DNA of 64,000 nucleotides from Ignavibacteriota bacterium (GTDB lineage Bacteria > Bacteroidota > Ignavibacteria > UBA10030). The translations under genes and the position numbers were made by a program. Below are positions 42,726 to 63,887 of the stretch, piece by piece. The DNA lies in the NCBI GenBank assembly GCA_963701295.1, contig OY969585.1, forward strand, positions 3,488,001 through 3,552,000, read 5' to 3'. The notes beneath the pieces were generated by a model. It saw only the letters and a list, made by a program, of their open reading frames with translations. It did no database searches and was not told where the DNA came from. How positions within the stretch are numbered: the first letter of the stretch is position 1; each line of letters starts with the position of its first letter.

Positions 42726-43083
42726 CGTCGCTCGTAGCCTTGCTGCTCGTTAACTCTAGTATATGAAAAGTACTTTTCTGTTCCACGAAGTTATTACTTG
42801 CGATTACGCACGTCTCGTTGTGCAGAAGACAAATTACTACCCTCGCCGTTGCTCGAAAATTACTCCTGCTGATCTATACTTTGTGGAAAACAAATTTCCC
42901 CTATATCCCTGATTATAAATCTATCTAGAATACATCAGAAGGTCTTTCGTTTTAAAACATTCTTCGTTAGTTATTCTATTACGCCACAGGCGTATCAGTC
43001 TTTGGCGGAGAAATATTTTTTGCTTAGACTCTTGACATTGAACACAGTACATGGTTAGACGACAAAAAAATACTTTACGGCTA

Positions 43084-43420
43084 TTATGACAAGTAAAACA
43101 AGCGAGCTGACGAACGGATAACAATGAAATAGATAGTGCAAGCAGTGTTTTTATTTGAAATAATTTCAGTGGGATTTGATAGTTCGTTTATCTGATCGGC
43201 AATTTTATCAATCAGCTCTGCTTGTTCAAGTTCATTTTGTTCTAGAAGTTTTACTCGTTTCTCTCCTTGTTCCAACGAGATATTTTTATGCTTGCCGTCC
43301 TCTTTCGAAGCGTTTCTGAAATATTTCTTAACATCGCCGAAAATCTTTCCGCCGGTTTCAACAATGATCGGACCATATTTCAAGATTTTATACCATGGTA
43401 TTTTCGAAAGAATGCTAACG
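43084..43420 (-). pseudogene. Small coiled-coil hypothetical protein, probably degraded; distal cassette
   Basis: ORF 43084..43383 without a clear start; lies just after an attC R' arm at 43468. Confidence 0.4.
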
Positions 43421-43467
43421 GCACTTATTGGATTATCTTCCTATGTTTATTGAAGAATGTTTTTACC

Positions 43468-43487
43468 GCTTAACGGATGGGCGCTGA
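43468..43487 (-). repeat. attC remnant (R'/L' arm only)
   Basis: gcttaacggatgggcgctga matches the arm at 49551. Confidence 0.65.
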
Positions 43488-43563
43488 TCGCACACGATCT
43501 CCTTTGTTTGCTTTCTATTATATATATTCTTTATCAACGGAACAGTAATCTGTCGGTTTCTCC

Positions 43564-44820
43564 TTACGAACCAGAAGGATTTACTATCTTGCCAATAAAC
43601 AATATCGTTCCAGATTGATGTTCACGAATGGCAAAAATAAAAGGATGATCAATGCGCATAACATTGATTTCAGGTCTACCGGGGTATACAGCTGTTATTC
43701 CAACACCTATTATTGTCACAGCAGCAGCCTCTGTCCCTTCCTCATCAACATCCACATACGTTTTGTGTAATACGTCGGAAACGAATAATCCGCCAATAGC
43801 ACTTATGTGACTAAGGTCTGCCCTCAAAGGGTCAAACGCTATTCCCATACCTAGTGCCTTCAATTCATCCTTCAATGATTGAGAATATTTCAGCGTAAAT
43901 TTAGGCATATATACATCGACTTTTGCTGAATCTAATTTGTTTATAATTGTATTCCATTGAGCTTGCGTCAGTGCCGATGCAAATTGATCAATGGAAATTC
44001 CGGCAGAAGGTAATATAATCGTCATACTATATGACCGATCACTGTAAGGTAAATCTATCGCTTGTACAGAACTATCTGCATAATATGCATAGGTGTCTTC
44101 CTGGCTCATTAACTTGCATGTTGTAACGCTTCCATCTTCGCATGTGAAAGATGCATCTTTAGTACCCGATGTGTCAAATTTATACGTCCACGTCCCTTTA
44201 AAATATATTGCATTGATGAGATACATTACGATATCGGATGGAATATTGCCATCTATTATCGTCGGGATTTTACCGTTTGTCTTCGTGTTCACCCAATTGT
44301 TGATGGCTTGTGATGCACTGGGCAGAGTAAAATTCAGAGAGTCCACTTCTGCATCGAAATAGTTTTTATTGACATTCAAGAAATTGGACAACACCGGAAA
44401 TCCACCTCTATACCAGATAGAATTAGCATTTTGGAATGTGACGTGAGCATCAAGGGTTGTTAATAAGGCAGAGACATTTTTATACGCATTGTTTATATCA
44501 TTCAATGACATACCAGCATCGCCAAGCGCCTGTTCCAACGAATCAAGCGTAGAACCATTTGCACCATTGAGCAGCATGCCAAATGCCATGGAAACACTAA
44601 AGGGAGAGATGAACACGTTCTTGTTTTGTTCACTTCCGTTGATTCGGGCAAAGAGCTTGAAGCCGAATGAATTATCAGATGAGACAATGGTATTTTCTAC
44701 TATATCAAGATGACGGATATTTGGCTGAACTTGTGACGGTTCAGTGCAATTAGTTCGACAACCCAATAAAACAGTTGTGGCAATTACGAAAACAAGAATT
44801 AGAAATATTGTTTTATTCAT
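43564..44820 (-). CDS. Serpin-family lipoprotein
   Basis: NVFISPFS, NAIYFKGTW, EEGTEAAA hinge, DHPFIFAI; lipobox LLGC. Confidence 0.93.
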   Translation of the reverse strand: MNKTIFLILVFVIATTVLLGCRTNCTEPSQVQPNIRHLDIVENTIVSSDNSFGFKLFARINGSEQNKNVFISPFSVSMAFGMLLNGANGSTLDSLEQALGDAGMSLNDINNAYKNVSALLTTLDAHVTFQNANSIWYRGGFPVLSNFLNVNKNYFDAEVDSLNFTLPSASQAINNWVNTKTNGKIPTIIDGNIPSDIVMYLINAIYFKGTWTYKFDTSGTKDASFTCEDGSVTTCKLMSQEDTYAYYADSSVQAIDLPYSDRSYSMTIILPSAGISIDQFASALTQAQWNTIINKLDSAKVDVYMPKFTLKYSQSLKDELKALGMGIAFDPLRADLSHISAIGGLFVSDVLHKTYVDVDEEGTEAAAVTIIGVGITAVYPGRPEINVMRIDHPFIFAIREHQSGTILFIGKIVNPSGS

Positions 44821-44943
44821 AAGACGCTCCTTTGTATGAGAATAAATAGAACAAGTCCATCCTCTTCACTTTTAAGCCGGAGGCTCATACGCCTTGGACT
44901 TACAAATCCGTACCCACTGTTGCAAATCATAAATTTTGAAAAG

Positions 44944-44977
44944 CGTTCATTCCGTCAGCTTGAGTGCCTGGTTAGGC
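44944..44977 (-). repeat. attC remnant (R''/L'' arm)
   Basis: ttcattccgtcagcttgagtgcctggttaggc; stop codon of ORF 44972..45388 lies inside R''. Confidence 0.8.
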
Positions 44978-45388
44978 AGCATTACTTTGTCCCGACGAAT
45001 ATTTCGATTCAAAATACTTTTTTTGGCATTCCTTCCAATCCATAAATCCAACCCACCCAAACATTACGACCATTGGAAGAACAACGAATACTATTGTATA
45101 TAATATTTTTGCTTCATACGACAGAAACCAAGTCAAAAGCAATGACAGAGGTAGCCCATAGAGCAGGCTAAATTTCAACGAGTAAGCAATCTGCTTATTC
45201 TTAATTCTTTCAAATTGAACGACACGTTTCTTCATGCTCTTTTCTAAAAAAAAGAATAAAGCAAACAAAAGAAATAATATTACAAATATTCCGACAACCA
45301 TCATATTTAATGGCGGTGGATTAAATATCAATCTTACCAATAGTGGAACAAAGAAAATGAATGGAATATATTTATTTTTGTTTTCCAT
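44972..45388 (-). CDS. Small 4-TM hypothetical cassette protein
   Basis: GAGGAG RBS, hydrophobic segments, TAA overlapping the attC R'' box. Confidence 0.7.
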   Translation of the reverse strand: MENKNKYIPFIFFVPLLVRLIFNPPPLNMMVVGIFVILFLLFALFFFLEKSMKKRVVQFERIKNKQIAYSLKFSLLYGLPLSLLLTWFLSYEAKILYTIVFVVLPMVVMFGWVGFMDWKECQKKYFESKYSSGQSNAA

Positions 45389-45412
45389 GTGTCTCCTCGT
45401 TTTGATAATGTT

Positions 45413-45953
45413 ACCTAACGGATGGCGGCTAAGTCCCGATTTGATCTTCGATCAAATCGAGTATCCCGTACAGCGGGACTGACGTGCTGATAACTTTTGC
45501 GCCAGAGGCGCATGTGCCTTGGGCACACAATATACACAAAACGAACAAAGTTCATTCTAAAAAGTTTATTATTAATAACCAAACCTCTGCTCGCCATGCT
45601 TGGCGTACCACACCTGCCCCGCGTTTTTGCAGGGCTCATTCCGTTAGCTTGAATATTATGACAAAGTCAAGCCGATTTCAAGAGTACCAAATTGACCGAT
45701 TTGTAATTCGGAATATAACCGACTCCGACCACACTAACGCACACACCACCAGGTGAAACGAGCTTTCTCCATTGAATAGCCTTTGCTGACGTACATACTA
45801 TCTAGCTTCTGCGACTTGAAGAGTTGGGTCTTCTTCAAGCTGTAGGCTCGATGCGCCTTGAGCCGCGTTAGACTTCTTCAACTCTTCCTTGGTGTATGAC
45901 TTGTGTACCTTCCGTTATTTATGTCTTTAGTCTAATGGAACCGCTGGTTATGT
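45413..45953 (-). repeat. attC interrupted by three insertions
   Basis: acctaacggatggcggctaag...ttccgttagcttgaa[287-bp element]ccgctggttatgt. Confidence 0.8.
45651..45940 (-). mobile_element. Non-autonomous IS110-family element (bridge RNA plus ends, no transposase)
   Basis: GAA repeated at both ends; removal restores the attC; junction promoter TTGACT-N17-TAGACT; internal guides match target and donor; residual transposase-like tail YIPNYKSVNLVLLKSA*. Confidence 0.75.
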
Positions 45954-45963
45954 TGCAATTGTT

Positions 45964-47276
45964 TCATCTAAGTAAAACAAGTTTCTTCGTTTCTGTAAAT
46001 GTTCCGGCTTGCAAACGATAAAAATAAATTCCGCTCGACATATTTGCCGCATTCCATTGTTTAGAACAATTTCCCGCTGACATTTCTTCCGAGACAAGTG
46101 TTGCAACTTCTCTTCCTAATAAATCAAATACTTTTAATGATACAAACGATTCTTTTGGAAGATCATAAGAAATAGTAGTTGTTGGATTAAATGGATTGGG
46201 ATAATTCTGACTCAGAGTAAATCTCTTTGGCTGAGAAGAAGGTTGCTTTACATTAGTCATTAAATCAGAAAGAGGCCGCCTCCACGCACCGCCACCCTCA
46301 GTTCCGACCAAGAGATCCTTGCCGCCTTTCCCATCGGGAGATACGGTGACAGTCCAGTCCCAAGGGTTCATCGAGGCCGAATGAATGTCAGTCCAATGAG
46401 CACCGTTGTCAGTAGAAAAAAAGACACCGCCACCCCATGTCCCAACAAAGATATTTGTGTCACCTGTCTCTTCGGGAGATACGGCGATTGAATTGATAAA
46501 AGTGGTTGTGAGACCGGAATTAACGGCAGTCCAATTAATGCCGTTGTTTGTGGAAAGAAAGATCCCATTATGTGTACCTGCAAAAAGATTCGTTCCACTA
46601 ACAGCAAGAGCATTTACATTGGTATTAGCTAGACCTGAGTTGACGGCAGTCCAATACGTGCCGTTATTGGTAGAAAGAAAGACTCCGCCACCCTGAGTCC
46701 CGGCAAAGATATTTGAGCTGTCCGTTCCGTTTTGGGTTACGGCCAGAGCATAGACTGTATCGTTCGTCAAACCAGAATTGACAGCAGTCCAGTGTGTCCA
46801 ACTTGACCCGTTAAAGGCTGAGCGAAATATCCCGTTGCCTTTAGTACCGACAAAGAGATTTAAGCTATCGGTCCTTCCAGGTGATGGACTCACGGCAAGT
46901 GACCAAATATCCGTGTTCGATATACCGGAATCGACTGCAGTCCAATTTGTCCATCCAGTTCCATTATAGATCGATAGAAAAACCCCATGGTGAAATGTGC
47001 CTGCAAAGAGAAGCGTGTCAGATGCTGTAAGAACAGTGGCAACAATATTCGTAGATCCAAATGGATCCCAGCGTGTTCCATTGTTAGTCGATAGAAAGGC
47101 TCCACCATCGGTTGTTGAAAAGAGATACGTGCCGCCTGCCCCGTTTGGAACGACGGCAAAAGAAAGAACAGCATAATTAGTTAACCCGGAATCAATAGCA
47201 GTCCATTGAGCAGAAGTTTCAGCCGGCAAAAAGAACAATCCACCAATGAATAAAACAGCAACGAAAAGAACTTCAT
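45964..47276 (-). CDS. Beta-propeller (BNR/YVTN-like repeat) protein with T9SS C-terminal domain
   Basis: Repeats GVFLSTNNGxxWTAVNSGL; QNYPNPFNPTTTI...KKLVLLR. True start likely ATG 47276 after GAGGA, with a 1-bp homopolymer slip; the track's extension runs into the attC. Confidence 0.85.
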
Positions 47277-47326
47277 AAGATTTTCCTCTTTTAATTGTTC
47301 TTTTTAGGTAATTAAATAAGAATGCA

Positions 47327-47512
47327 ACATAACGGACGGGCGCTAAGCTGCGGCGCTGCAAACGTTCAACATGCTGATAACGGAACAAATTCATTGTACT
47401 TATTTTCATATTAAAGCAAAATCTCTGCTTGTCATGCTAATTGTAGCGAACCTGCCCGCCATACTTTATATTTTGGCGCGCTCATTCCGTCAACTTGAGC
47501 GCCCGGTCAGGC
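47327..47512 (-). repeat. attC site (186 bp)
   Basis: acataacggacgggcgctaagctgcgg...ttccgtcaacttgagcgcccggtcaggc; stop of the upstream ORF lies in R''. Confidence 0.88.
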
Positions 47513-47917
47513 GGTAATTTTATCCTTTCTATCTAAATATTCAGCCAATGACAAAAATTTCTTCGGCCATACATATCCATTCTCTTCGCTTAGGAGCACT
47601 CCAATTCCTTTTACCGAAGAATTATCAATCGGTCCATAGACGTGTGGAAAAACCGATGAAGTACTTATATGCTGTGTTCCAGCTCCTTTTTCCGGTGCTG
47701 CCGATTCGTATTTTGTTTGTGATTTTAACTTTAATGGATCGATTTTGAGAAGTAATAATTTATCCTCAACATTCGAATAATAATCATTGGCAACTGAGAT
47801 TACTGAAGCTTCGAGTGCGCAATGAACAAAACCATTTTCGTCAAAATCGATAGGGATATAACTATCTCCTTTGATTAAATGCAGATAGTCTTTTTCTTTT
47901 ACGATATGATAAATCAT
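47507..47917 (-). CDS. DUF952-family protein
   Basis: MIYHI, GFVHC, LLLKID, FPHVYGPI. Confidence 0.85.
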   Translation of the reverse strand: MIYHIVKEKDYLHLIKGDSYIPIDFDENGFVHCALEASVISVANDYYSNVEDKLLLLKIDPLKLKSQTKYESAAPEKGAGTQHISTSSVFPHVYGPIDNSSVKGIGVLLSEENGYVWPKKFLSLAEYLDRKDKITA

Positions 47918-47939
47918 TTCTAATTCTTTCTAAATTATC

Positions 47940-48170
47940 GCCTAACGGACGGCAACTAAGCTGCCGCAACGAGAAGCCGCAAGTTGCTGAATACAATCCA
48001 AGTTTATTCTGAAAAGTTTATTATTAAATATCTGAACCTCTACGCGCCATGCTTAATGTACCCATTTACCCGCCATGCTTTATCTTTGGGCGGGCGCTCA
48101 TTCATAATTAGTATCACGCTTCGCGTGATTCATTCTTCTCGACAAGCCGAGCTTGAGCGCCTGGTTAGGC
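47940..48170 (-). repeat. attC site (231 bp, with a hairpin insertion)
   Basis: gcctaacggacggcaactaagctgccg...agcttgagcgcctggttaggc. Confidence 0.85.
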
Positions 48171-48338
48171 GATGCTGGTGAACAACACTCACAGAATTGA
48201 TCCTGGAACCGTCAATCTTCGTAATAAGGATAAGGACATTAAAAAATAATTCTGTGAATTTATCAGTACTCCACAATCGTTGAGCCACGCCAAATGAAAG
48301 TGAAGAAACCTGAAAAAGAGTCGACCTATTATGGAATA

Positions 48339-48618
48339 TTATCCCATTAGCTTATCGAAGTCTTCCACACTTACCGCTGGTGCTGTACGAAACGCAATCC
48401 CTAATAATTTAGTCAAGGCTACTGAGATCTTCATCGCTTGCTCAAAATCAGGCAGATCTATGATAAGAACTAAATCTAATTCCCCGAGCAGTGCAATATC
48501 CAGCCTTGATCTTTCCACCATGCTTCTTGATTAAAGCGTTGGCTTTATCGGTGCGTTTCGCGCTGATTGACTTTAGCGCATCTTGTGAGTAATTACCAAA
48601 CATCAGAAAAGTAGTCAT
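48339..48618 (-). CDS. GYD-domain protein; 1-bp frameshift near 48496
   Basis: MTTFLMFGNYS...GGKIKAGY joined to ALLGELDLVLIIDLPD. Confidence 0.75.
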
Positions 48619-48728
48619 ATCAATCTCTCCTTTCTTTTGGTGTTTGAGGACGCGACTACCATGACTCATTGGGATTCTCCAGGCAAATTTGACCTGAGAG
48701 CGGATAATAATTAAAGTGAAAGTTTCTT

Positions 48729-48763
48729 TCTAACATGGGCGGACTCTCATAAAGTGGTCAGGC
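48729..48763 (-). repeat. Collapsed attC remnant
   Basis: tctaac...ggtcaggc; the following gtcaggcaaagtatttt is complementary (with G-T wobbles) to aaaacatttcgcctaac at 49541-49557. Confidence 0.5.
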
Positions 48764-48779
48764 AAAGTATTTTGCATAA

Positions 48780-49496
48780 TCAAAAACTATAACTTAACTG
48801 AAGTTGTAGACCATTCTTACTCGGTACAATGTTGAAATTGTACTGTTTCTTTTCCATTATTTTGTTGTAGAGTTGTTCGTTATACTTGTCAACCTGAGCA
48901 GAAGCATCTATCGCTTCCCAAACAGCAGAAACAAGGGCAACTCCAAACCCGATATAAAACCAAGCGGTAATTCTTGTTTCCGTATTGTAATAATAATTCC
49001 AGGAGTATCCATATGGATTCGGAGTTGAGTAAACATCTGACGTATAGCCGGCAGTTAATGCAAGAACAACTCCGCCCACTCTAGCAGCAGAGAAGAGAAG
49101 TCCTCGTCCCCAATTGCCGGCGTACAAATGTCCAGTGCTCGTGAGGAGAATCGAAAGAAGAACAGCCGTGGTGGGACTTTTCTTTTCATTCTCGTAGTAT
49201 ATCATTTTTTGAGCATCGGATTGACTACTTGATTCCTGCTGACGCGGCTGTTGCTGAATCTGTGAATCGGTTGAAACCTTCTCTTTGGTGAACTTGAGTA
49301 TGTTGCTATATTTTACTGTTAATGTTGATCCTCCAATCAATTCAATTTTCACATATTTCTTTGGAACGTTTTCGATTATCGTTCCCTTGAGAATGTCTCC
49401 ATTTTTGAGATAGATAACATCTATACGCTCTTGTCCAAGAGCATAAAACAAGGGGAAGAGAATTAGAACAACGATTGCGATTAGATTGCTTTTCAT
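48780..49496 (-). CDS. Exported/membrane hypothetical protein (DVIYLKNG N-domain + hydrophobic C-domain)
   Basis: Likely start MKSNLIA; signal peptide; KSPTTAVLLSILL..GHLYAG. Confidence 0.7.
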   Translation of the reverse strand: MKSNLIAIVVLILFPLFYALGQERIDVIYLKNGDILKGTIIENVPKKYVKIELIGGSTLTVKYSNILKFTKEKVSTDSQIQQQPRQQESSSQSDAQKMIYYENEKKSPTTAVLLSILLTSTGHLYAGNWGRGLLFSAARVGGVVLALTAGYTSDVYSTPNPYGYSWNYYYNTETRITAWFYIGFGVALVSAVWEAIDASAQVDKYNEQLYNKIMEKKQYNFNIVPSKNGLQLQLSYSF

Positions 49497-49550
49497 TGAA
49501 GTATCCTTTCGATTTTTAGACATCGTTATGATCCGGATATAAAACATTTC

Positions 49551-49769
49551 GCCTAACGGATGGGCGCTAAGCTGCGGCGCTGAGAACTTTCAAATTGTAC
49601 GAAACGAAACAAGTTCATTCGCAAAACCAAATTAATAAACACTCAACTTAATAATTACAATAAACAAAATTAACTAACGAGAACCCACAACAAGTCATGT
49701 TTAACGTACCACGCTTGCCCGCCGCATTTTTGGCGGGCTCATTCCGTCAGCTTGAGCGCCTGGTGAAGC
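49551..49769 (-). repeat. attC site (219 bp)
   Basis: gcctaacggatgggcgctaagctgcgg...ttccgtcagcttgagcgcctggtgaagc. Confidence 0.85.
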
Positions 49770-49780
49770 GGGCAAGCTTT

Positions 49781-50590
49781 TTACCTTTTCTGCTGATTAT
49801 ATTCGTTCACATACTTTGCAATTTCCAGCATTGGGGCAATCCATATCTGTCCTTCGTTTTCTTTGATAAAATGCAGCAATTTGCTATGTGCCTCCAAAGA
49901 AACATTCAGCGAATGTTCACCCCCGACTCCATGAAAAAGGAATACAATAAGGGAGTTACTCTCCATTGCTTTCTTCACCAAAGCAATAAGCACATCACCA
50001 GGTTCTCCGTTAATCATATAGGATCCGATATCGTATAAATCAATTTCATTGATTCTTTTCATTTTTCCCTCTACACCTCTCGCCGCAATAAACGTCCTTT
50101 TTATTTTCGGTACATACGATGAATCACCTGCATGAGTATCTCCACATGGATATGCGAATGTTCTCATTTTCTCTCCATCGATAGCATTCAATAAAACATT
50201 GGTCATATCAATTTCGTCGCTCATTCGTTGCATTGAATATGAATGGAGATCATAATCAGGTTGAACCCATTTTCTATCAGGTCTATTTCCTTCGCAAGGA
50301 TGAAATAATGTATGATTTCCAAGCTCATTTCCTTTCGATGCGATGATTTTCCATTCAGCTGATCGTTCGCGAAACCCTTGGAAAAATCCTGATATATAAA
50401 ATGTTGCCTTTAGACCAAGAGAATCTAATAGAGGAACAACATGATCTAGATGCACATTCAAAGCATCGTCATATGTAAGACAAACTGCACATCTCTTATT
50501 GTGCCATATGGTATTTTCTTGTGCATGTACTAGCGCTGCCATAAGAGTGATAATAAAACAAAACAATATCAATATTCGTGTTATTTTCAT
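49781..50590 (-). CDS. Polysaccharide deacetylase (CE4/NodB-like)
   Basis: LTYDD, ELGNHTLFH, FAYPCG, FLFHGVG; signal peptide. Confidence 0.85.
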   Translation of the reverse strand: MKITRILILFCFIITLMAALVHAQENTIWHNKRCAVCLTYDDALNVHLDHVVPLLDSLGLKATFYISGFFQGFRERSAEWKIIASKGNELGNHTLFHPCEGNRPDRKWVQPDYDLHSYSMQRMSDEIDMTNVLLNAIDGEKMRTFAYPCGDTHAGDSSYVPKIKRTFIAARGVEGKMKRINEIDLYDIGSYMINGEPGDVLIALVKKAMESNSLIVFLFHGVGGEHSLNVSLEAHSKLLHFIKENEGQIWIAPMLEIAKYVNEYNQQKR

Positions 50591-50603
50591 CTGAAAGGAT
50601 CCC

Positions 50604-51527
50604 TTAGTTTATAATTTTATTCTTTCTGAGAAATTCTCGTATCGCTGCAAAACTGTCTATAAATGATTGCCGGGAAAAACCACCATGCATTGCACCTTGA
50701 ATTGTAACCAATTTATTGGGCACACCTATTGAATCTAGAGCCGCATGAAATTTTACGGTATTATCATATACTGAAACATCATCTTTACTCCCCTGAATAG
50801 ATATAATAGGAGGAAGTCCTGGACGCACATAGTTGATAGGCGATAACTGCTTAGCAAGCTCCTTACGATTTTCAATGCTGCCAAACCATTCAATTGCATA
50901 ATGTTTTGCACTTGGGCCGTCAAGAAGATCGGCAACATCGGTTATGCCGTACCAATTAATGATAGCAGCGACATGAATCTGCAATTCGTCCGCTTTATTC
51001 CAGCGAACACTATTATCGGTGGGATACCGACGATCAAATGCCGATTGTGCTTGTAGCATCCCCGTCATCAATGCTAAGTGTCCACCTGCTGATCCGCCAG
51101 TAAGGACAATCTTCGACGTATCAACATTATATTCTTTAGCATGAGAAACGAGCCAGCGAAGAGCGCATCGACAATCTTCAACAGCTGCAGGTGCTAACGA
51201 ATTTCGGGCTAAACGATATTCCACATTGATAACAACCCAGCCAAGTGACAAATATGGCAGAAGCTGCAGAACATTGCGTTCCTTCTGGCCTTCAACCCAA
51301 CCGCCACCGTGGAAAAGTAATAATGCTGGCACAGTGGTATTCATTGTCTTAGGCAAGTAGAGATCAAGTTTTAAATCTGTATTATTTGCTGTCGAATAGA
51401 CAATATTGGGATATATTTCATATTCATCAGATGCATAGTCAATCCAAGGATCTGTACTTATTGATTGTGTGTGGCATACTGTTGTAAACAAAAGGACTAT
51501 GAGGGTTAAAGAATTATATCTGATCAT
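50604..51527 (-). CDS. Secreted alpha/beta hydrolase (acetyl/feruloyl esterase-like)
   Basis: HGGGW, EYRL, GGSAGGHL; start MIRYN at 51527 after GGAG. Confidence 0.85.
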   Translation of the reverse strand: MIRYNSLTLIVLLFTTVCHTQSISTDPWIDYASDEYEIYPNIVYSTANNTDLKLDLYLPKTMNTTVPALLLFHGGGWVEGQKERNVLQLLPYLSLGWVVINVEYRLARNSLAPAAVEDCRCALRWLVSHAKEYNVDTSKIVLTGGSAGGHLALMTGMLQAQSAFDRRYPTDNSVRWNKADELQIHVAAIINWYGITDVADLLDGPSAKHYAIEWFGSIENRKELAKQLSPINYVRPGLPPIISIQGSKDDVSVYDNTVKFHAALDSIGVPNKLVTIQGAMHGGFSRQSFIDSFAAIREFLRKNKIIN

Positions 51528-51554
51528 AACTACTCCATAAAATAAATTTGATAA

Positions 51555-51636
51555 TCTGCTTGCCAGCCGTCTTTTTGGCGGGCTCATTCCGTCAGCTTGT
51601 CACGAAATGACCACTTCGTGAAGCGCCTGGTTAGGT
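51555..51636 (-). repeat. Partial attC (R''/L'' arm with a 22-bp palindrome inserted)
   Basis: gggctcattccgtcagcttg[tcacgaaatgaccacttcgtga]agcgcctggttaggt. Confidence 0.8.
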
Positions 51637-51650
51637 TGTGTTTTGCCGAT

Positions 51651-52340
51651 TTATTTTTTCTGTTTAAGCATCCATTCATATATTTCAGGATTCTTTTCAT
51701 AGAGAAACTGTAAATGATGTCCTTCATTTTCTAAGCGTGTATATTTGATATTACCATTGCATTTTTTCAATGCGTTTACTATTCGCTCTGTTTCGCTAAT
51801 TGGAATTATAGTATCTGCTGTTCCATGAAAAGCCCAAATAGGAGTATTTTTGAGATTACAAATTCTTGAAGTGTCGCTATCAAAACATCCGCCACATAGG
51901 GGAATTAAGGCAGCAAATTTATCAGGATAATCCATTCCGACCCCATAGACACCGTATCCGCCCATGCTTATTCCTGTAACATATACTCTGGTACTATCAA
52001 TCTTATACTTAGTAATTAAATCCAAATATAAACTATCGAACCAATCCTCTAATGTCCAATATTTGTCGTCAGGGCATTGTGGTGAAGCAATGATAAAATC
52101 AAAGTTCTGTCCCTTCTCAATAAGATAAGGCAAGCCATACCCTTTTAACTTGTTTAAATCGTTTCCTCTTTGTGAGGCGCCATGTAAATAAATTACAAGC
52201 GGATACTTATTTGTCTGCTTAGAACAGTCTCTTGGTAAATACAGCAGATAACTATAATTCGCTTTTGTCTTTATCTGCGAATAGGAATAAACATGAAAAG
52301 AAAGAAGTAAAATAAAAAAGAATCTCAATTTGCTTTTCAT
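51651..52340 (-). CDS. Phospholipase/carboxylesterase (peptidase S9-like)
   Basis: YLHGA, SPQCP, GISMGG, FHGTAD, GH. Confidence 0.85.
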   Translation of the reverse strand: MKSKLRFFFILLLSFHVYSYSQIKTKANYSYLLYLPRDCSKQTNKYPLVIYLHGASQRGNDLNKLKGYGLPYLIEKGQNFDFIIASPQCPDDKYWTLEDWFDSLYLDLITKYKIDSTRVYVTGISMGGYGVYGVGMDYPDKFAALIPLCGGCFDSDTSRICNLKNTPIWAFHGTADTIIPISETERIVNALKKCNGNIKYTRLENEGHHLQFLYEKNPEIYEWMLKQKK

Positions 52341-52367
52341 CTGGTTGAATGCTTTTCTCAAAACGCA

Positions 52368-52556
52368 ACCTAACGGACCGGCGCTAAGTTGCGCCGCTGA
52401 TAACTTTCAAAGTGTACTACACGAAACGAGTTCATGCTGAAAAATTTATTATTAAGAACCGAAACTTATGCAAGCCATGCTTAACGTACCCATTTACCCG
52501 CCATGCTTTATTTTTGGGCGGGCGTTCATTCCGTCAGCTTGAGCGCCTGGTTATGT
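52368..52556 (-). repeat. attC site (189 bp)
   Basis: acctaacggaccggcgctaagttgcg...ttccgtcagcttgagcgcctggttatgt. Confidence 0.9.
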
Positions 52557-52565
52557 GCAATTGCA

Positions 52566-54053
52566 TTATTTCAGTAGAATAAGTTTCTTTGTTTCAGTAA
52601 ACGCTCCGGCTTGCAATCGATAAAAATAAATTCCACTCAATACATTTACTGCATTCCACTGCTTAGAATGACTTCCTGCCGACATTTCTTCAGAGACAAC
52701 AGTTGCTACTTCTCTTCCAATAATATCAAATACCTTCAACGAAACAAATGATTTTGATGGAAGACGAAAAGAGATAGTCGTCGATGGATTGAACGGATTT
52801 GGATAATTTTGAGACAGTGAATAACCTTTGACGATGGTACTCCCATCCGTTGGGACATCTGTTGTATTTACCGGAATCCATGAAATAATGATTCTGTAGC
52901 CGGTAAAATTATACGTAGAGCCGCTTACAGCAAGAGGAAAGTTGTAATCTGTCGGTACCCATGAAGAACCGGACCACAATGTATTATTTCCCGTAAGCTC
53001 ATTCCCATGTGCATCGTAGGTGAAGGTGGATTGCCGATAATTTGTCCATAGCCCATTTAGCCAGTCTTGAATTAATTCATTAACCATATTTCCATTTGGA
53101 TCGTACGTGTATGTGTAGAGCGATCCATTCATCCACGTTTCATTTGTCCATCCCTTTAACCAATCTGTAAGCATTTTTCCATTCGCATCGTAGGTGTACG
53201 TGTGGAGCGTTGAATTTGTCCATTGCCCATTAGCCGAGTTCTGTAAGAGAAAACTAAGCATATTTCCGTTCGCATCGTAGGTGTAGGTGGATAGTGTTGC
53301 ATTTTCCCATTGCCCATTCCAAACCTGCATCAAGCCGGTAAGCATGTGCCCATTTCCATCATAGGTATAGGTCCACTGTTCTGAATTTGTCCACTTACCG
53401 GACAACCATTGCTCAAACAAAAAAGTTAGGTGATTCCCGCTGTTGTCATTGGTGTAAGTGCTTCGATCATGATTTACCCATTGCCCATTTGTCATGTACT
53501 CACCTAAATTAGTAAGCATACCCCCATTTGCATCATAAGTGCGAACGCTAAAAATAGAATCCTTTCTTACCCCTCCAGACCAATAACTAAACAAATGAAC
53601 AAGCATATTGCCCTTTGCATCAAAGGTTGAGCTGTCTAATGTTGAATTTACCCATTGCCCATTCAGCCACATCTGCTCCAGATCAATGCTGTTATCATTC
53701 GCACCAAAGTATGTCCAGGTGTCCAGCATATAATTTCCCCAATTCCCATTCACCCAAGCTTTTACTAATCTTTGAGTAGTTGAACCCTTCTGGTCATAAG
53801 AAGCAGTTATGAGTATAGTATCTTCCATTGAATAAAGTGTTAATGAATCAGGAAGATAAATTTGAGCATTAGGAGCAGTTTTTTTGTTTAATCCTGAGTT
53901 AAGCTGAGCTTGTTTATTGAAGATAGGTCCGGAACCATGCTTTTGTTGAGCCGCCATTTTTTCTATGTTCAAGCTCTGTGTCCCTTGTGCTCTGAGATTG
54001 TGTGCAGGTATAATGAAGAACATAACTGCAAGAATTGCCAAAAAAAGTTTCAT
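52566..54053 (-). CDS. YD-like repeat protein with T9SS C-terminal domain
   Basis: About 9 repeats of WxN....TYTYDANGNML; QNYPNPFNPSTTI...KKLILLK. Confidence 0.85.
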   Translation of the reverse strand: MKLFLAILAVMFFIIPAHNLRAQGTQSLNIEKMAAQQKHGSGPIFNKQAQLNSGLNKKTAPNAQIYLPDSLTLYSMEDTILITASYDQKGSTTQRLVKAWVNGNWGNYMLDTWTYFGANDNSIDLEQMWLNGQWVNSTLDSSTFDAKGNMLVHLFSYWSGGVRKDSIFSVRTYDANGGMLTNLGEYMTNGQWVNHDRSTYTNDNSGNHLTFLFEQWLSGKWTNSEQWTYTYDGNGHMLTGLMQVWNGQWENATLSTYTYDANGNMLSFLLQNSANGQWTNSTLHTYTYDANGKMLTDWLKGWTNETWMNGSLYTYTYDPNGNMVNELIQDWLNGLWTNYRQSTFTYDAHGNELTGNNTLWSGSSWVPTDYNFPLAVSGSTYNFTGYRIIISWIPVNTTDVPTDGSTIVKGYSLSQNYPNPFNPSTTISFRLPSKSFVSLKVFDIIGREVATVVSEEMSAGSHSKQWNAVNVLSGIYFYRLQAGAFTETKKLILLK

Positions 54054-54100
54054 AACATCCTCCTTTTTAAATAAAAAGTTAAAAAATTAGTATTTAGTTT

Positions 54101-54249
54101 ACATAATATACTAAACGAAACAAGTTCATGCTGATAACCAAATTAATTTATCCCCAACCAACGAGGTACCGAAAAGGTAATAATAAAAACGTCAACCCAC
54201 CATTAGCCATGAATTTTGCAGTGCGCTCTTACCGTCAGCTTGAGCGCCT
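54101..54249 (-). repeat. attC body (R'/L' arm deleted), split by IS110; its R'' box is displaced to 55606-55612
   Basis: gaaacaagttcat...gccatgaattttgc...ccgtcagcttgagcgcCT | ggttaggc. Confidence 0.8.
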
Positions 54250-54264
54250 GGTATGTTGAGTCTG

Positions 54265-54475
54265 TGACAATTATTTTCGTATCCTAATCCATTGGCAAAG
54301 TCATAGGAGAGATAGGAGCCGCTAGATATCTTCCCAGAAGAATATCGTTAACCAGATACATCTCCCTATGACTTTCCGCTTCTCAAGAATCTGAACAGTA
54401 CTTTGAGATCCATATTTCTTTCCCGTGGAATCCCGTATAACGCACGAGTCAAGATCACAAGGAAGCTGCCAATGT
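54265..54475 (+). ncRNA. Predicted bridge RNA of the IS110 element
   Basis: Outer stem ATTGGCA/TGCCAAT; stem AAAGTCATAGG/CCTATGACTTT enclosing GAGCCGCT and TAACCAG; second loop with ACAGTAC. Confidence 0.75.
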
Positions 54476-54513
54476 ATTTCTTCTCTTAACCTCTATTTCA
54501 AGGAGCTTTTGCT

Positions 54514-55537
54514 ATGACGATCTTAAAACAAACCATCGGTATCGATGTCTCTTACAAATCCTTCGATGCCAGATTCGGTACCATCAATACTCAACAAGAA
54601 ATAAACCTATCTGCTTCAAAATCCTTCAAAAACTCACTCGCAGGATTCAAACTCTTTCTGCGATGGCTCAAGAAATATATCCTCTCCGACGATATTCCTC
54701 TGGTCTTTGTCATGGAAGCTACTGGCGTCTATTACGAACACCTCTCTCACTTCCTCTTCCAGCAGGGGTATCAAGTTGCCGTTATCCTGCCCAATAAAAT
54801 TAGAAATTATGCCAAATCTCTCGAATCCAAATCCAAAACCGATCCTCATCGATGCCGCCGTCATTACTCGATTTGGCCTTGAACGACAACTCTCACTCTG
54901 GATGCCGCCTTCAGAGACTATAAAAACTCTGCGCGATCTCTGCAGGGAATACCACTGCCTCAAAGCTAACTGCACGCAAATTAAGAATCAACTCCACGCT
55001 CTCCAATCTTCCTTCAAGCCGCACAGAGAGTCCTTCAAACGCAAAACCCAACTCCTCAAATTCCTCGAACGGCAGGTCGCGCTTATTAAAAAGGAACTTC
55101 TCGCCTTAGTCAAGACCGAGCCTGATCTTCTGGCCCAGCGTCTCAAGAAAATCAAAACAGCTAAAGGCCTCGGCGATATGACCATCCTCACCGTCCTATC
55201 TGAAACTCGCTGCTTTGAGCTTGTCTCCAATCAAAAGCAGCTTACCAGCTACGCTGGTTTCGACATCGTCTTTAACGACTCTGGCTTGAAGAAAGGAAAA
55301 ACTTCTATCTCAAAAAAGGGCAATAAGTTTATCCGTAAAGCTCTCTTTATGCCTGCCATCTCTGCCTGCCGGGCTAATCCTGATCTCAAAGAACTCTATC
55401 AACGTCTTATTGCTAAAGGCAAAAATAAAAAACTTGCCATCGTTGCTGTCGCTCGTAAATTATTACTCCTGATCTCCACGCTCTGGAAATCTAATTCTGT
55501 TTACGTCCCCACTTATAAACCGATCCAACTCGTTTAA
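54514..55537 (+). CDS. IS110 transposase/bridge recombinase; 1-bp frameshift near 54847
   Basis: IGIDVS, VMEATGVY, KTDP-IDA, DSG, ISKKGNKFIRKALFM, AVARKLL. Confidence 0.92.
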
Positions 55538-55622
55538 TACTTACGCTGTCTCTTGTTCTTTGAAATATTTTTTACTCTAACTCTTGACTTTTACCACAGT
55601 ACCTGGTTAGGCAGCAATTGTA

Positions 55623-58282
55623 CTAACGAAGTAAAATGAGTTTTTTTGTTTCTTTAAATAAACCTGCATCCAAACAATAGAAATATATACCACTCGAGAA
55701 ATTCGATGCATCCCATTGTATAAGATGTTTCCCCGCTGTTTCTTCCCCATTTACTAAAATTGATACTAATCGTCCAAGAGGATCATAGATTTTCAACATT
55801 ACATACGATTGGGACGCAAGTTCGTAGCTGATGGTTGTTTCAGGATTAAAGGGATTGGGAAAATTATTGTTGAGTTTAAACTGTTTAGGGATTTCTTTAT
55901 GTTCTTCAACATCGGTCGTTTTTTGAAATGAAATCCAGTTGATGTTGAAACCTCCAGTGATAACCTCCAAACGGAGTACCTTATTCACACCCGATTTTAT
56001 TGTGATATTCGACAGGGAAACGGTCTTCCATTGCTGCCATCCGGAAGTATTAGGTATACTTATCGTGCCAAGATCGGTGCCGTCAAAAATAATTTTTAAT
56101 TTGCCACTTGCACTAACTGAAGCAATGCGCACGTCGAGCATTGATATATCAGCATTGACGTCAACCGTATAGGTCAACCATTCGCCATCACTAATCCAAC
56201 CGACATCATAGCCACCCCCTGTATCGCTGCATGTCTCTATATCCACGTCATCAGTTCTGTACTGACCGCCATTATTTCCGGCATCTGTATCAAAATAAGA
56301 AACACCGTTACTTCCGAGATCATAATTTTCAGCTTCTATTTTCCCGGGAATTTGAGCAGGCGTACCTGAATACGGACCGGTTTAATCAATGTTAATACTG
56401 AAGTTGTAATTGAAGGATAAGAGTAACCATCATTGTTCTTACCGGTAATACGATACATATACAAGGTGCTGCCTGATAAACTGGAATCGGTAAATACAGT
56501 ATCGTTGGCAATGGTACTTCCGATCGAATCAAATTTAGTATTGCCGTATCGTTCTATCAGGTAGCCGGTTTCATTAGAAATATTATTCCAGACAATCTTT
56601 GCCTGATTAAACGAAGGCGATGTCGCAGAAACGATAACCGGGGTTTCCATATTGTTTTGCATCTCTTTTGGGCCTATAGCCCAGGTGTAAGGCAGGAATG
56701 GATCTTCTTCATAATCGAACCAGTCGAAATCTGCAGGGTTAACATTTTTAAATCCATTCCCTGATGCGTACATTCCGATGAAAACACCGGTAAAGCCCCC
56801 GATGACTTCTGTGGACAGGTCTTTTGTTAATGCAGAACCTATCAGCTCGGCTGATTTTCCTTCCTGCTGTATCCAAAACTGGTACTGAAGGTCTGTTGCA
56901 CTGATCCGTAAGATGATATCGCCGTCAGGAATTTCTTTATAATTGAGTCCAACAACTTTATCCTGCAAATATTTCCGAAGCATTATCACTCGTTTCCCTG
57001 CAAACATAGTAATGAGAAGATCATAATGATTTTTATCGTCTCCACGAACCACCAAACCAACTTCTTCATTTTCAGCAGTTGGAATAAAACTAATGTTCGT
57101 TGATGCAACAAGATTAAATGCCGTTTGTCTGCGACCTATAAAAGCAGGCGAATCTTGTTCTTTAAAACTAATTTTTGAACCATTTAGCCTGAGAAATCCA
57201 GGTTTTGCACTAAGCGACCAATCTGCAGCATAAGGATTACGGATAAAATTCCAAGGCAGGCGCAATGCCACACTGTCGAAATTATCTCGGATGGAATCTT
57301 TTTCCCAGACATACTGAGGAAGATTTGGAGCGTTGTACACGGAATCTACGATTCCATTCGTTCCACCTTTAGGCCACCCATCGGAATTCCAGGCAATAGG
57401 TGCCAGAAATGTTTCACGACCTAAATGATGATAGTTGCCACCTTTGGGTCTGATACCGAGGCAAACCAACCACCAGCTACTATCTTGGAGTTGAACTAAA
57501 TCAGCGTGTCCAATAGCCTGAAAAGGATTATTGGGAACATCCTTATGCGAAATAACCGGGTTTATAGGACTTACAGTATAAGGTCCCCAAGGTGATTGAC
57601 TCCTCTGAATTACTTCCATGTGCTGATAACCCGTTCCTCCTTCAGCAGACATCAAATAATAGTATCCATTAATTTTATACAAATGTGAACCTTCGGGAGA
57701 TGCTCCACCAGTCCCTGAAGCTATCTTTGTCAATGGCTTAATGAAGTTGCCCGTTTTAGGATTCATTGTACCTAGCAAAAAACTACCATTATTGTCAGGA
57801 CTAACATAGTACATGCTATCGTTTTCGAACAATAGCGAAGGATCTACGTACCAGTAGTTTATCCAATGAGGATCGGACCAAGGACCAGCGGGATTTGTGG
57901 CAGTTACATAAAACTCCCCTTGAGAACCTTGCCCGCCATAGTTTGTGCAAATTACATAAAAAGTGCTGTCTTTATAGCGCAAAGTCGGGGCATATTGACC
58001 ACCCGAACCTGATGCACAACCCATCAAAGGATTGTTGCTTGCACGGGATAAAACATATCCAATCATTTTCCAATGCACCAAATCTTTACTGTGATATATT
58101 GGCAACCCGGGAAAATACTCAAAAGTAGATGTTATCAAATAATAGTCATCACCAACACGGCATATACTTGGATCAGGATTCATACCAGTAATTATTGGGT
58201 TTCGAAAGGTCGTTTGCGCAAGGACCTTAAATGTAAGGGCAATCAATCCTAAAAAAATTATTGTCGTTAATCTGTTCCACAT
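55623..58282 (-). CDS. GH43 xylosidase/arabinofuranosidase + FN3 + CBM6 + T9SS CTD; 1-bp frameshift near 56380
   Basis: NPDPSICRVGDDYY, PEGSH, LGRETFL, GGFTG; frame shift restores GPYSGTPAQIPGKIEAENYD...GWISDGEWL...NFPNPFNPETTI. Confidence 0.88.
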
Positions 58283-58325
58283 AATGTTTGTTCCTTCTCT
58301 TATTCATTTACGTTATACAATTGCC

Positions 58326-58445
58326 GCTTCATGGATGGCGGTTAAGCTGCGACAACGTGAACTTCCAAATTGCACTACCCGAACCAAGTTCATTCGCTTC
58401 ATTTTCAAATCTGTACTAAACCTCTATACGCCAAGCTAAATGCAC
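58326..58445 (-). repeat. Partial attC (degenerate R'/L' arm and body)
   Basis: gcttcatggatggcggttaagctgcg...gaaccaagttcattc...aacctctatacgcca. Confidence 0.7.
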
Positions 58446-58567
58446 CAACGATTTTACGGTCAATCCCGAAATCACTATTGTTAATATCGATAGTAAGTAT
58501 TTTTTCATATTCCAATTTTTTTTAGATGTTTATTATAAATTTTAAACGCGTGAATTCATTATGATTA

Positions 58568-60208
58568 CTATTCTTTTAGTATTTTAAATACCATCGCAAT
58601 ATTGTTTGGAATAATATTCGGTTTTTTTATTACAAGTGAATCAGAATATTGTTTCCACTGAAGCTTTTCTTTGCTGCCAAGTATTCCGATGTTTTTAATT
58701 TTGGCATTGTCTTTCGTTTTGCCAAGCGATTTCAAGCATACATCATCTGTTGGTACGCCCAATACAGTTGCATAAAGCATATTTCCTTTCTGGTTGAATC
58801 GAATATCTTTTGAAGAGAATTTGCTCTTCCCTTCGTTAAACCCTGGTGAATTAACCGTCCTTACTGTTTCGGTAGAGGGACCTTCGCCATAGATTAGCCA
58901 AGGACGTGTATCGTAAATACTTTCTTTATTAATGTCCATCCAAGCAGCAATTCCATCAAGTACTGCAATTTCTTTTTCGTCTATAGTCCCGTCACCACGA
59001 ACCGGTATGTTTAGTAGCAAGTTGCCATTTTTGCTGACAATATCGACAAGCATGTGAATCACAGTTATCGCTGATTTGTATTCGTTTTTCTCATAAATCG
59101 ATCTCTTATAATGCCAGTCGCCAATGCATGTACATGTTTGCCAAGCTTCAGCTTGAATGCTCTCAGGCGCTCCCCGCTCTACATCCCATACTATACATTT
59201 TTTTTGCTCATCGGTAAGAACTTTCCCAAACAAAACAGCTTCGAGCTTACCATTGTGGGTTGCCATATTATGATTGTAAAAGTGGGCAGCAATTTTTAAT
59301 CCGGCATCACTTATTGGATAAAGCGGAAGGGCAGTATCATCGAAATAAAGCAGATCGGGGTTAAACCGGTTAATCAGGTCAACAGTGCGGTTGTAAAACT
59401 TATCACAGTAGTTTTGCGAAGGTATGGAAGCGCCATTGCCCCATGTCCATTGCCCGAATATGGAGTTGATATCATAACTACCTTCGCTTAGCAAATGGTT
59501 TTGAGCGTAGAGCTCCTGCGGGTCAAGTCCTTCCCACCATGTTCCTTTACCATCGGTCTTTGTGAGTTTCCCATCGTATGGAACACCCACAAGCTCTCCA
59601 TTTTTATCAGAATGTTGAGAGGTTTCCAACCACGTCCATGAACGTGATGCATGTACACTCAATCCGAATGGAAGGCCATATTTTTTAGCAGCTTTAGCCC
59701 AACCGTCAATAATATCCTTTTTGGGCCCAACGTGTACAGTGTTCCATTCCTGGTACTTACTATTCCACAAGTCAAGATTATCGTGATGGTTTGCCAGGGC
59801 AAAGAAGTATTGGGCACCTGCCCGTTTATAAAGTGCCACAAGTTTTTCCGGATCCCAATTTTGAGCTTTCCAGTCATTAATAACTTCCTTAAAACCTGCT
59901 TTGGATGGATGTCCATAATGTGCAACATGCCATTTATATTGGTCGCTGCCTTCGTTGTACATGTACCGCGCATACCAGTCACCTTGCTCAGGCTGACACT
60001 GTGGGCCCCAATGAGCCCAAATGCCAAACTTGGCGTTACGAAACCATTCGGGCGCTTTATATTGCAGGAGCGACTGCCATGTAGCTTCGAACTTTCCCGG
60101 GGCAGCAGGTTCGTTACCTGGACGAACAGGACAAGGATAACTGGTTTGTGCAAAAGATATTTGCTGAAAATAAAGTGTAACAATTAATAAAAAAGTTGTT
60201 TTCATCAT
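58568..60208 (-). CDS. Alpha-L-fucosidase (GH29)
   Basis: KFGIWAHWG, NHHD, LLYFD, DIVSKNGNLLLN. Confidence 0.92.
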   Translation of the reverse strand: MMKTTFLLIVTLYFQQISFAQTSYPCPVRPGNEPAAPGKFEATWQSLLQYKAPEWFRNAKFGIWAHWGPQCQPEQGDWYARYMYNEGSDQYKWHVAHYGHPSKAGFKEVINDWKAQNWDPEKLVALYKRAGAQYFFALANHHDNLDLWNSKYQEWNTVHVGPKKDIIDGWAKAAKKYGLPFGLSVHASRSWTWLETSQHSDKNGELVGVPYDGKLTKTDGKGTWWEGLDPQELYAQNHLLSEGSYDINSIFGQWTWGNGASIPSQNYCDKFYNRTVDLINRFNPDLLYFDDTALPLYPISDAGLKIAAHFYNHNMATHNGKLEAVLFGKVLTDEQKKCIVWDVERGAPESIQAEAWQTCTCIGDWHYKRSIYEKNEYKSAITVIHMLVDIVSKNGNLLLNIPVRGDGTIDEKEIAVLDGIAAWMDINKESIYDTRPWLIYGEGPSTETVRTVNSPGFNEGKSKFSSKDIRFNQKGNMLYATVLGVPTDDVCLKSLGKTKDNAKIKNIGILGSKEKLQWKQYSDSLVIKKPNIIPNNIAMVFKILKE

Positions 60209-60246
60209 ATATTAATTTTTTACAATTGATATTAATGCCCTTTACA

Positions 60247-62357: not shown

Positions 62358-62508
62358 GCCTAACGGACGAGCGCTAAGCTTCTGCACTAAATATTTTCAA
62401 TATATACAAAATAAGTTGATCGTACCAACTTTCAATGAAACACGAAACCTCTGCTTGTCATGAATTTTGCAGTGAGCTCATTCCCTCAGCTTGAGCTGCT
62501 GGATAGGA
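62358..62508 (-). repeat. attC site (151 bp, variant R'')
   Basis: gcctaacggacgagcgctaagct...ttccctcagcttgagctgctggatagga. Confidence 0.82.
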
Positions 62509-63503: not shown

Positions 63504-63703
63504 GGCGGTTCCTTATTAAATAGGTTATTTAATTTTATTAGTGATTTATGAGAGTACTAATACAAGACTTATCCACAATTATGGCCAATGTCCATTAGGA
63601 ATTTTCCATCCCAGTATTGGCAACCCTGCAGAGATAAATATTTTTTTTGTACCTAAAATGTAAACAAATATCACCCACAAAAATGTGATATAATAAAAAT
63701 GCG

Positions 63704-63857
63704 CCCTAACGGATTGGTGCTAAGCTGCGGCGTTGATAACTATCATAATGCAACCAACGAAACAAGTTCATACTGGTTCTCTCAATCTTGCACTAACCTA
63801 TGCTCGCCATGAATTTTGCACCCAGCTCATTCCGTCAGCTTGAGCGCCTGGTTAGGC
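63704..63857 (-). repeat. attC site (154 bp)
   Basis: ccctaacggattggtgctaagctgcgg...ttccgtcagcttgagcgcctggttaggc. Confidence 0.9.
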
Positions 63858-63887
63858 CGCTCCTCGCGGCATAAGACTCGAATTGGA

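Follow-up and report, generated by a model that had tools for sequence, protein, structure and literature searches.

The stretch of DNA analysed here (the window) comprises 64,000 nucleotides of an Ignavibacteriota bacterium, G000:C1:3488001-3552000, where G000 is this genome, a 3.64-Mb single contig; other G numbers denote relatives and L numbers denote loci. The window holds the tail of a genuine integron array, in which minus-strand cassette genes with repeats between them run from about 43 kb on. Two of its attC sites are occupied by RNA-guided elements of the IS110 group, an IS621-type element (element A) and a 287-bp mini-element (the mini) of a second lineage, element B. This work concerns the targeting of one attC arm by these two elements and by further lineages of the same family.

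IntI is encoded about 15 kb past the window end (G000 3566706-3567665), divergent from the cassettes, and matches TIGR02249 with 453 bits against a cut-off of 265. It is the only gene of integron-integrase type identified in G000 (other tyrosine recombinases being unclassified) for the approximately ten arrays around the 3.6-Mb chromosome. The attC repeat occurs genome-wide in these arrays, with 143 and 138 matches for its two arms and 120 paired sites. The plus strand of the window is the attC bottom strand, which folds from R box to R box with T and G bulged in CCG-T-CAGCTT-G-AG-NNNN-TG-GTTAG, and attC positions are numbered here from the extrahelical G on the bottom strand; the box names (R'', L'') follow PMC7439510. 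As expected of integron attC sites, R boxes, extrahelical G and T, an unpaired central spacer, cassette arrays and IntI were all found. The two spacers are 5 and 8 nt long, the usual attC spacers being 5 and 5-6 nt. Cassettes that were duplicated at the AA|C crossover and have new neighbours suggest recombination by IntI. The features of the two occupied sites and of the empty ones used for comparison are as follows; they were read from the sequence, and any further basis is given in brackets.

45415..45433, plus strand: R'/L' arm of the attC that bears the mini, an arm that is never targeted
45434..45478, no strand: 45-bp hairpin in the L' box of this attC, damage separate from the mini
45637..45652, plus strand: L'' side of this attC through the extrahelical G and the left GA core (45651-52)
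45653..45939, minus strand: the mini of element B (287 bp counting one core), made up of the left end with its bridge RNA, the last 16 transposase codons and the right end (also relatives)
45665..45670, minus strand: -35 box TTGACT of B, with TAGACT (45929-34) 17 bp downstream once the ends are joined, a predicted promoter
45768..45801, minus strand: donor-binding loop of B, with the left guide (45794-801) decayed and the right guide at 45768-74
45835..45843, minus strand: right target guide of B, ACAGCTTGA, which reads the L'' box
45860..45868, minus strand: left target guide of B, ACGCGGCTC, which reads the CCGC allele (also covariation)
45938..45951, plus strand: right GA core (45938-39), spacer allele AACCGC and the R'' box displaced by the mini
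54233..54249, plus strand: L'' box and spacer allele GAGCGCCT occupied by A; the upstream R'/L' arm was not found
54250..55604, plus strand: element A, IS621-type IS110, including the right CT core 55603-04 (also profiles)
54315..54355, plus strand: target-binding loop of A, left guide GGAGCCGCT at 54315-23 and right guide TTAACCAG at 54348-55 (also fold)
54395..54448, plus strand: donor-binding loop of A, ACAGTACTT at 54395-403 and CACGAG at 54443-48 (also fold)
54514..55537, plus strand: transposase of A (DEDD and Tnp20), split by a frameshift near 54848 (from profiles)
55605..55612, plus strand: R'' box GGTTAGGC displaced by A
62493..62500, plus strand: spacer allele GAGCTGCT of an empty attC, for which the other arm compensates only in part
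63703..63858, plus strand: intact empty attC; the plus strand is the bottom strand, with an R box-to-R box fold and G and T bulged (also fold)

The mini is present as one copy in G000. Its first 191 and last 78 bases match both ends of 1.28-kb elements in relatives (6/85 genomes with a match), where full B elements encode a 345-aa IS110 transposase, have the same ends and occupy the same attC base. By its sequence the mini is an internal deletion of such a 1.28-kb IS110, which retains the bridge RNA and the last 16 transposase codons (the codons were read by eye). No match to the B transposase was found in G000 at 1e-40. Miniature inverted-repeat transposable elements (MITEs) are present in several copies moved in trans; the mini, one copy with no cognate transposase in G000, is instead a stranded deletion derivative. 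Across 17 sequences the consensus structure of the B RNA comprises two loops, and 10 of its 25 pairs show double changes; the RNA of the mini, folded as a single sequence, was no better than shuffles (z -0.7). Two independent, shorter deletions of B were seen in relatives, L019 (G027:C5:136303-136487) and L020 (G019:C11:66154-66315); they hold the left end with part or all of the bridge RNA, end at an internal TC joined to attC and resemble products of mis-excision at pseudo-donor sites inside the element.

Element A is on the plus strand, bounded by CT cores at 54248-49 and 55603-04. The earlier note on this DNA had taken it for a full IS110, a description that does not hold for the transposase: PF01548 and PF02371 match in two frames and NF033542 in two pieces, each below its cut-off. 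The extra base near 54848 is missing from homologous contigs, and the frameshift may be a true mutation or an assembly error. The other A copy of the genome (G000 254.5-255.7 kb) lacks an internal stretch, and G000 was found to hold no intact A transposase. The two copies share 98% identity over the first 600 nt and 77-92% beyond. The RNA of A folds with a z of -3.1, and Rfam at the gathering threshold gave no match in window 43000-56000.

The observation from which this work started, namely that two RNA-guided elements converge on the same stretch of attC, was borne out at every coordinate. The mini uses the GA (TC) core in minus orientation and A the CT core 4 bp away in plus orientation, on AGCTT-GA-GCGC-CT-GGTTA. 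Their donors differ (ACAGTAC-CT-CGTATG for A, ATAGTAT-TC-CATTAG for B) and their RNA scaffolds are also unlike. The targeting is more than chance, because in each element the two guides reproduce the sequence of the attC arm, and relatives occur at the same attC base. For both A and B we found a DEDD and Tnp20 transposase (only its tail in the mini), a non-coding RNA upstream of tnp with target and donor loops, duplicated CT or TC cores and promoters predicted by sequence at the junction of the ends (TTGACT-17-TATGTT and TTGACT-17-TAGACT), all as in the IS110 group; intact relatives of both match the IS621/ISCro4 structures PDB 8wt6 and 9t56 (E about 1e-29 to 1e-33). The long non-coding end of A and B lies upstream, whereas IS1111-attC elements carry the RNA downstream of tnp and have sub-terminal inverted repeats. 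To call the two elements unrelated, as had been done, was overstated: they are homologous members of the IS110 group, and their transposases share 30% (BLASTP) or 33% (global) identity. The attC-targeting clades of A and B each have close relatives with other targets, and a joint clade was rejected (approximately unbiased test, p 6e-76; 18 rows, quick tree search), so the two are homologous but separately converged on attC.

The crowding on this arm extends further, since at least five IS110-family lineages evidently land within about 13 bases of the same attC site. There are 13 Tnp20 matches in G000, two of them A and the remaining 11 lineage C, an IS1111-type element whose copies, 9 of them identical and 2 variant, all sit at CT; only C is intact in G000. 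It has the IS1111 layout, with a long right end that carries the guides and AAAAAGGA/TCCTTTTT sub-terminal repeats. Lineage D, with the RNA in its right end and an AG core near -5, was found in G017 and G018. Lineage E, with a left-end RNA and an AG core at +1/+2, is represented by a full element in L092 and by 135-bp minis in three genomes (in G018, 5 of its 6 matches are minis). The cores therefore fall, within the one arm, at about -5/-4 (AG, D), 0/+1 (GA reversed, B), +1/+2 (AG, E) and +6/+7 (CT, A and C); the RNA is in the left end in A, B and E and in the right end in C and D, and pairwise identities among A-D are 24-33%. Elements are even stacked in a single attC, A and B left end to left end 4 bp apart (L101, L105), A with C (L035), D with C (L048, L049) and E with C (L054). 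On the other attC arm no element was seen among the occupied sites in G000 and relatives.

The guides of these elements were then compared with the attC alleles. The left guide of A, GAGCCGCT within 54315-23, is mismatched at one base with GAACCGCT (45938-45) and likewise with GAGCTGCT (62493-500), and at two bases with the site that A occupies, GAGCGCCT (54242-49), in agreement with the claim that it fits those two spacers better than its own; its exact allele, CCGC, is present at no fewer than 17 other attC sites of G000. The window A copy is an exception to the matching of guides and alleles; in L101 this guide is found in a site that it matches. The exception might stem from insertion that tolerates mismatches or from exchange between copies after insertion. 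In lineage B the left target guide exists in the versions GCGG, GGCG, GCAA and GTCG, each found mostly in the matching allele, and the guides have been switched among transposases that are 83-94% identical. Over 29 junctions of B (4 of them non-attC) 98/116 bases match between guide and allele, a figure attained in 0/5000 shuffles, whose mean was 65.5; the figures are 40/80 for C (1/5000 shuffles) and 29/40 for A (127/5000 shuffles), all of them overstated in that one position is constant and many copies are near-duplicates. A further candidate, GTGCGCTG in the right end of C, was dropped as target guide: it is identical in copies at different alleles, and the upstream loop covaries.

Tabulating alleles against occupancy, as the earlier note had proposed, revealed allele-specific insertion within single genomes. 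In G000, where C carries an xGCT guide, xxGCT is present in 8/9 occupied and 34/109 empty sites (p 0.001; p 0.003 with a duplicate collapsed), and CGCCT in 0/9 occupied and 52/109 empty sites. In G029 CGCC-guided A and C fill 4/5 CGCCT sites and 0/12 yyGCT sites (p 0.002). The idea that CGCC is an allele of escape from all elements was dropped on finding CGCC-guided copies of A, B and C. At the level of sequence comparison, the link between guide and attC allele is thus supported in three lineages, and its direction is that of the element tracking the host.

On these grounds we consider it likely that at least five IS110-family lineages share the cassette-proximal (R''-L'') arm of a large attC family as a landing strip and that their guides match the stem allele at the occupied site, probably through retargeting. 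The guides would be retargeted by point changes and would follow stem variation that the integrase would be expected to tolerate. By analogy with IS621 and seekRNA work, the elements would be excised as circles, form a promoter at the junction and insert under RNA guidance. Insertion is predicted to stop the folding of attC, and most occupied sites likely end dead with decaying elements, like both window copies, rather than being switched back on.

Several points weigh against this interpretation. No RNA expression, circle or recombination was seen; the sequencing runs with a match (best share 0.14) were all contigs of other, distant strains and carry no information on excision or expression. 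The p values of the guide-allele comparison overstate its significance because the element copies are near-duplicates. Mismatches occur in the window A copy, in 3 B copies with the GCGG guide and in C at TTGC sites. Lineages D and E are known from few loci, the tree that separates A from B came from a quick search and not a careful one, and the shifts of allele between genomes are unexplained by one-way tracking.

These shifts are an argument for a two-way arms race at the level of the cassette, in which guide-matched cassettes become occupied and leave the mobile pool, unmatched alleles spread and guides then switch, so that frequency-dependent selection keeps the alleles. The CGCCT:yyGCT ratio ranges from 4:42 to 37:8 across the 10 of 16 genomes with at least 10 counts (G000 47:38, G019 37:8, G020 8:2, G024 27:14, G025 29:17, G026 20:15, G027 31:8, G028 100:61, G029 5:12, G031 4:42). 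The heterogeneity is significant by chi-square (p 2e-12; p 0.002 without G031), in genomes that are kin and in counts whose patterns B-occupied sites escape, and multicopy elements break assemblies. G029, G019 and G027 lean away from their resident guides: the ratio is low in G029, with resident CGCC guides, and high in G019, G020 and G027, all of which have B ends (a CCGC-type guide was read in G019 and G027). In G000, with its xGCT-guided burst, mismatched stems carry CGCC on the targeted arm in 13 cases against 3 (p 0.02), and the guide switching among closely similar B transposases also agrees with such a race. Against it, the corresponding arm counts are 6 vs 4 in relatives, and those of a control pair are 13 vs 7; the unmatched allele is not enriched in G000 (55%); and in the most extreme genome, G031, where the usual majority allele CGCC is nearly absent, no IS110 Tnp20 match was found in the 6-contig assembly.

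Moreover, the positions read by the guides show no excess variation. In G000, with 6 of the 120 sites set aside as out of register, the remaining 114 give entropies of 0.92/1.48/1.28 bits at +3/+4/+5. The untargeted bases with which these positions pair give 1.07/1.70/1.17 bits, and two unpaired, untargeted positions 1.21/1.56; the near-zero entropy of the remaining positions is in part built in by the search patterns, and the two window element sites are absent from this set because their other arm is damaged. The comparison in six relatives agreed (175/177 sites). Positions +3 to +5 pair with the other arm in 93/84/86 of the 114 sites, against shuffle maxima of 80/58/73; therefore, the 'spacer' alleles are a compensated stem. 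Such alleles are what structure-based recognition by IntI allows, the attC sequence outside the R box being described as unconstrained (PMC7439510). The suggestion that the spacer varies under pressure from the elements keeps some support: within genomes the variation is no greater than at untargeted positions, the outcome that the earlier note had named as refuting it, while between genomes the allele ratios differ and one arm asymmetry is as predicted. That the elements drive attC variation is less likely than tracking, and we regard the arms race as rather doubtful.

A second alternative is a reversible lock, in which insertion blocks the excision of the cassette by IntI and precise excision of the element restores it, so that the element acts as a switch of cassette mobility. 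Every core falls within the L'' and R'' boxes or between them, and in local folds that took in just 60 nt of element the R-box pair had a probability of 0.00 in 9/9 junctions occupied by C; with the element removed, the mean for these sites was 0.74. On both counts, insertion is predicted to block cassette excision. For the return step, post-excision junctions of IS621 are reported as detectable, though its excision is less efficient than insertion (both PMC13626964), and a preprint reports copy-and-paste (10.64898/2026.08.31.748434). Three near-identical cassette pairs were found, of which 2 are empty in both copies and 1 is occupied in both, with none mixed. A C-occupied cassette is present in two arrays, with bounds exactly at the crossover and different neighbours, as would be expected if the cassette moved with its element, if C inserted twice independently or if gene conversion took place. 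G000 has no B transposase and no intact A transposase, and both window sites carry further damage (the A site has no other arm, the mini site has the 45-bp insert in L'). Since both window elements are without a working transposase and their sites were already damaged, the reversible lock put forward in the earlier note is unsupported, and we judge it clearly unlikely.

Finally, we consider very unlikely a reading in which the folded hairpin counts for more than the sequence in target recognition and guides match alleles only because different host lineages were sampled. In its favour, ISPpu10 gains specificity from a stem-loop at its target (10.64898/2026.03.19.712850), the bulged G is also a point of insertion of short hairpins, and the B copies with GTCG guides are on contigs whose attC flank differs. 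Against it, occupancy is allele-biased within single genomes, and one C and one B copy lie in element junctions that form no attC (L035, L125).

Further traces of insertion were noticed in the window, both read from the sequence.

43010..43058, plus strand: remnant of an A-type right end, joined to an R'' box
51600..51621, no strand: 22-bp hairpin directly after the extrahelical G of an attC, at the core of B

Such hairpins, diverse in sequence and about 20-50 bp long, are found at fixed attC points, mostly after the extrahelical G and also in L' and in IS110 right ends (window 51600-51621, 45434-45478 and 48105-48147; L080, L081, L082, L085; G000 1045252, 1156347, 1157274, 2821611, 2826431 and 3159808). 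Repetitive extragenic palindromes (REPs) spread by a REP-associated tyrosine transposase (RAYT) were considered as their source but found no support: the genome has one weak Y1_Tnp match, and the strict hairpin class is mostly at attC. Rare alleles at empty attC sites (e.g. G000 240985, 261282, window 62493) equal the base that an adjoining element end would leave, A at +2 for B, C at +8 for A and A at +10 for C, and may be excision footprints. Nearly identical units of attC plus element C stand before different cassette genes (G000 3556200/3562605 and 2397951/2410246), and C variants with different right ends occur; these two features suggest that recombination between element copies swaps cassette bodies.

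As for the rest of the array, several cassettes of G000 recur between arrays beside new neighbours, and degenerate half attC sites mark the distal end (window 43470-43490 and 58325-58440). The cassettes at window 45964-47409, 52566-54053, 55623-56246 and 56336-62292 encode large secreted proteins with C-terminal sorting domains of the type IX secretion system (T9SS) and a multi-gene glycoside hydrolase block, and are unusually long for cassettes. A small cassette gene with an apparent frameshift (read by eye) lies at window 48340-48620; its product presumably resembles a GYD-domain protein.

RNA-guided targeting of attC is already known from the IS1111-attC group (ISKpn4, ISPst6, ISPa25, ISPa21) and its seekRNA (PMC11187229). 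Our elements resemble this group as RNA-guided members of the IS110 superfamily that insert at one attC end, and element C shares its layout, with the RNA downstream of tnp, sub-terminal repeats and a top-strand match 5' of the bottom-strand match. As that group is described, its elements share one position and the same guide matches, whereas here five lineages use four cores with allele-specific guide versions, three of them carry the RNA upstream, and the host is of an Ignavibacteriota/Bacteroidota-type lineage. A and B are in turn like IS621 and ISCro4 in their DEDD and Tnp20 transposase, left-end two-loop RNA, duplicated 2-bp core and predicted junction promoter (PMC11208160, PMC13626964). 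IS621, whose bridge RNAs were described in PMC11208160, has REP as target; our elements differ in targeting attC, in the TC core of B and in the natural guide series that track host alleles. The mini recalls the ssr9/MITEPpu9 module of ISPpu9 (PMC12288879), a transposase-free IS110 piece that is reported to depend on a helper, but it is a single decayed copy with no helper in G000, and the 135-bp minis of E are the closer analogue. That IS110 insertion at attC might immobilise cassettes has already been proposed for ISPa21 in blaGES-5 integrons, where experimental evidence is called limited (PMC11616780); a guide and allele analysis, as given here, goes unmentioned in the available text of that paper.

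Literature searches that covered titles and the starts of abstracts, with subscription papers and supplements outside their scope, did not find several IS110 lineages or allele-tracking guides at attC. RNA-guided IS110 elements and attC targeting being known, what is new here is the crowding of five lineages and the retargeting of allele-matched guides. The TC-core and AG-core recombinases are added to the known set. The elements form a natural series of near-identical bridge recombinases with guides 2-4 bases apart, each in its matching attC allele, in genomes with more than 100 countable targets whose alleles are known; this series opens direct tests of how guides are naturally retargeted, how far mismatches are tolerated, how elements compete for a site and what effect insertion has on cassette mobility. 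Crowding together with allele-matched retargeting also makes an arms race testable. It is only tentatively that we picture a natural guide-target race in integrons, in which IS110 lineages compete for one arm, occupied cassettes are lost from the mobile pool, and the stem, which IntI would recognise by structure only, flips between compensated alleles that the guides chase; if it were true, attC stem polymorphism would be kept by frequency-dependent selection from parasites.

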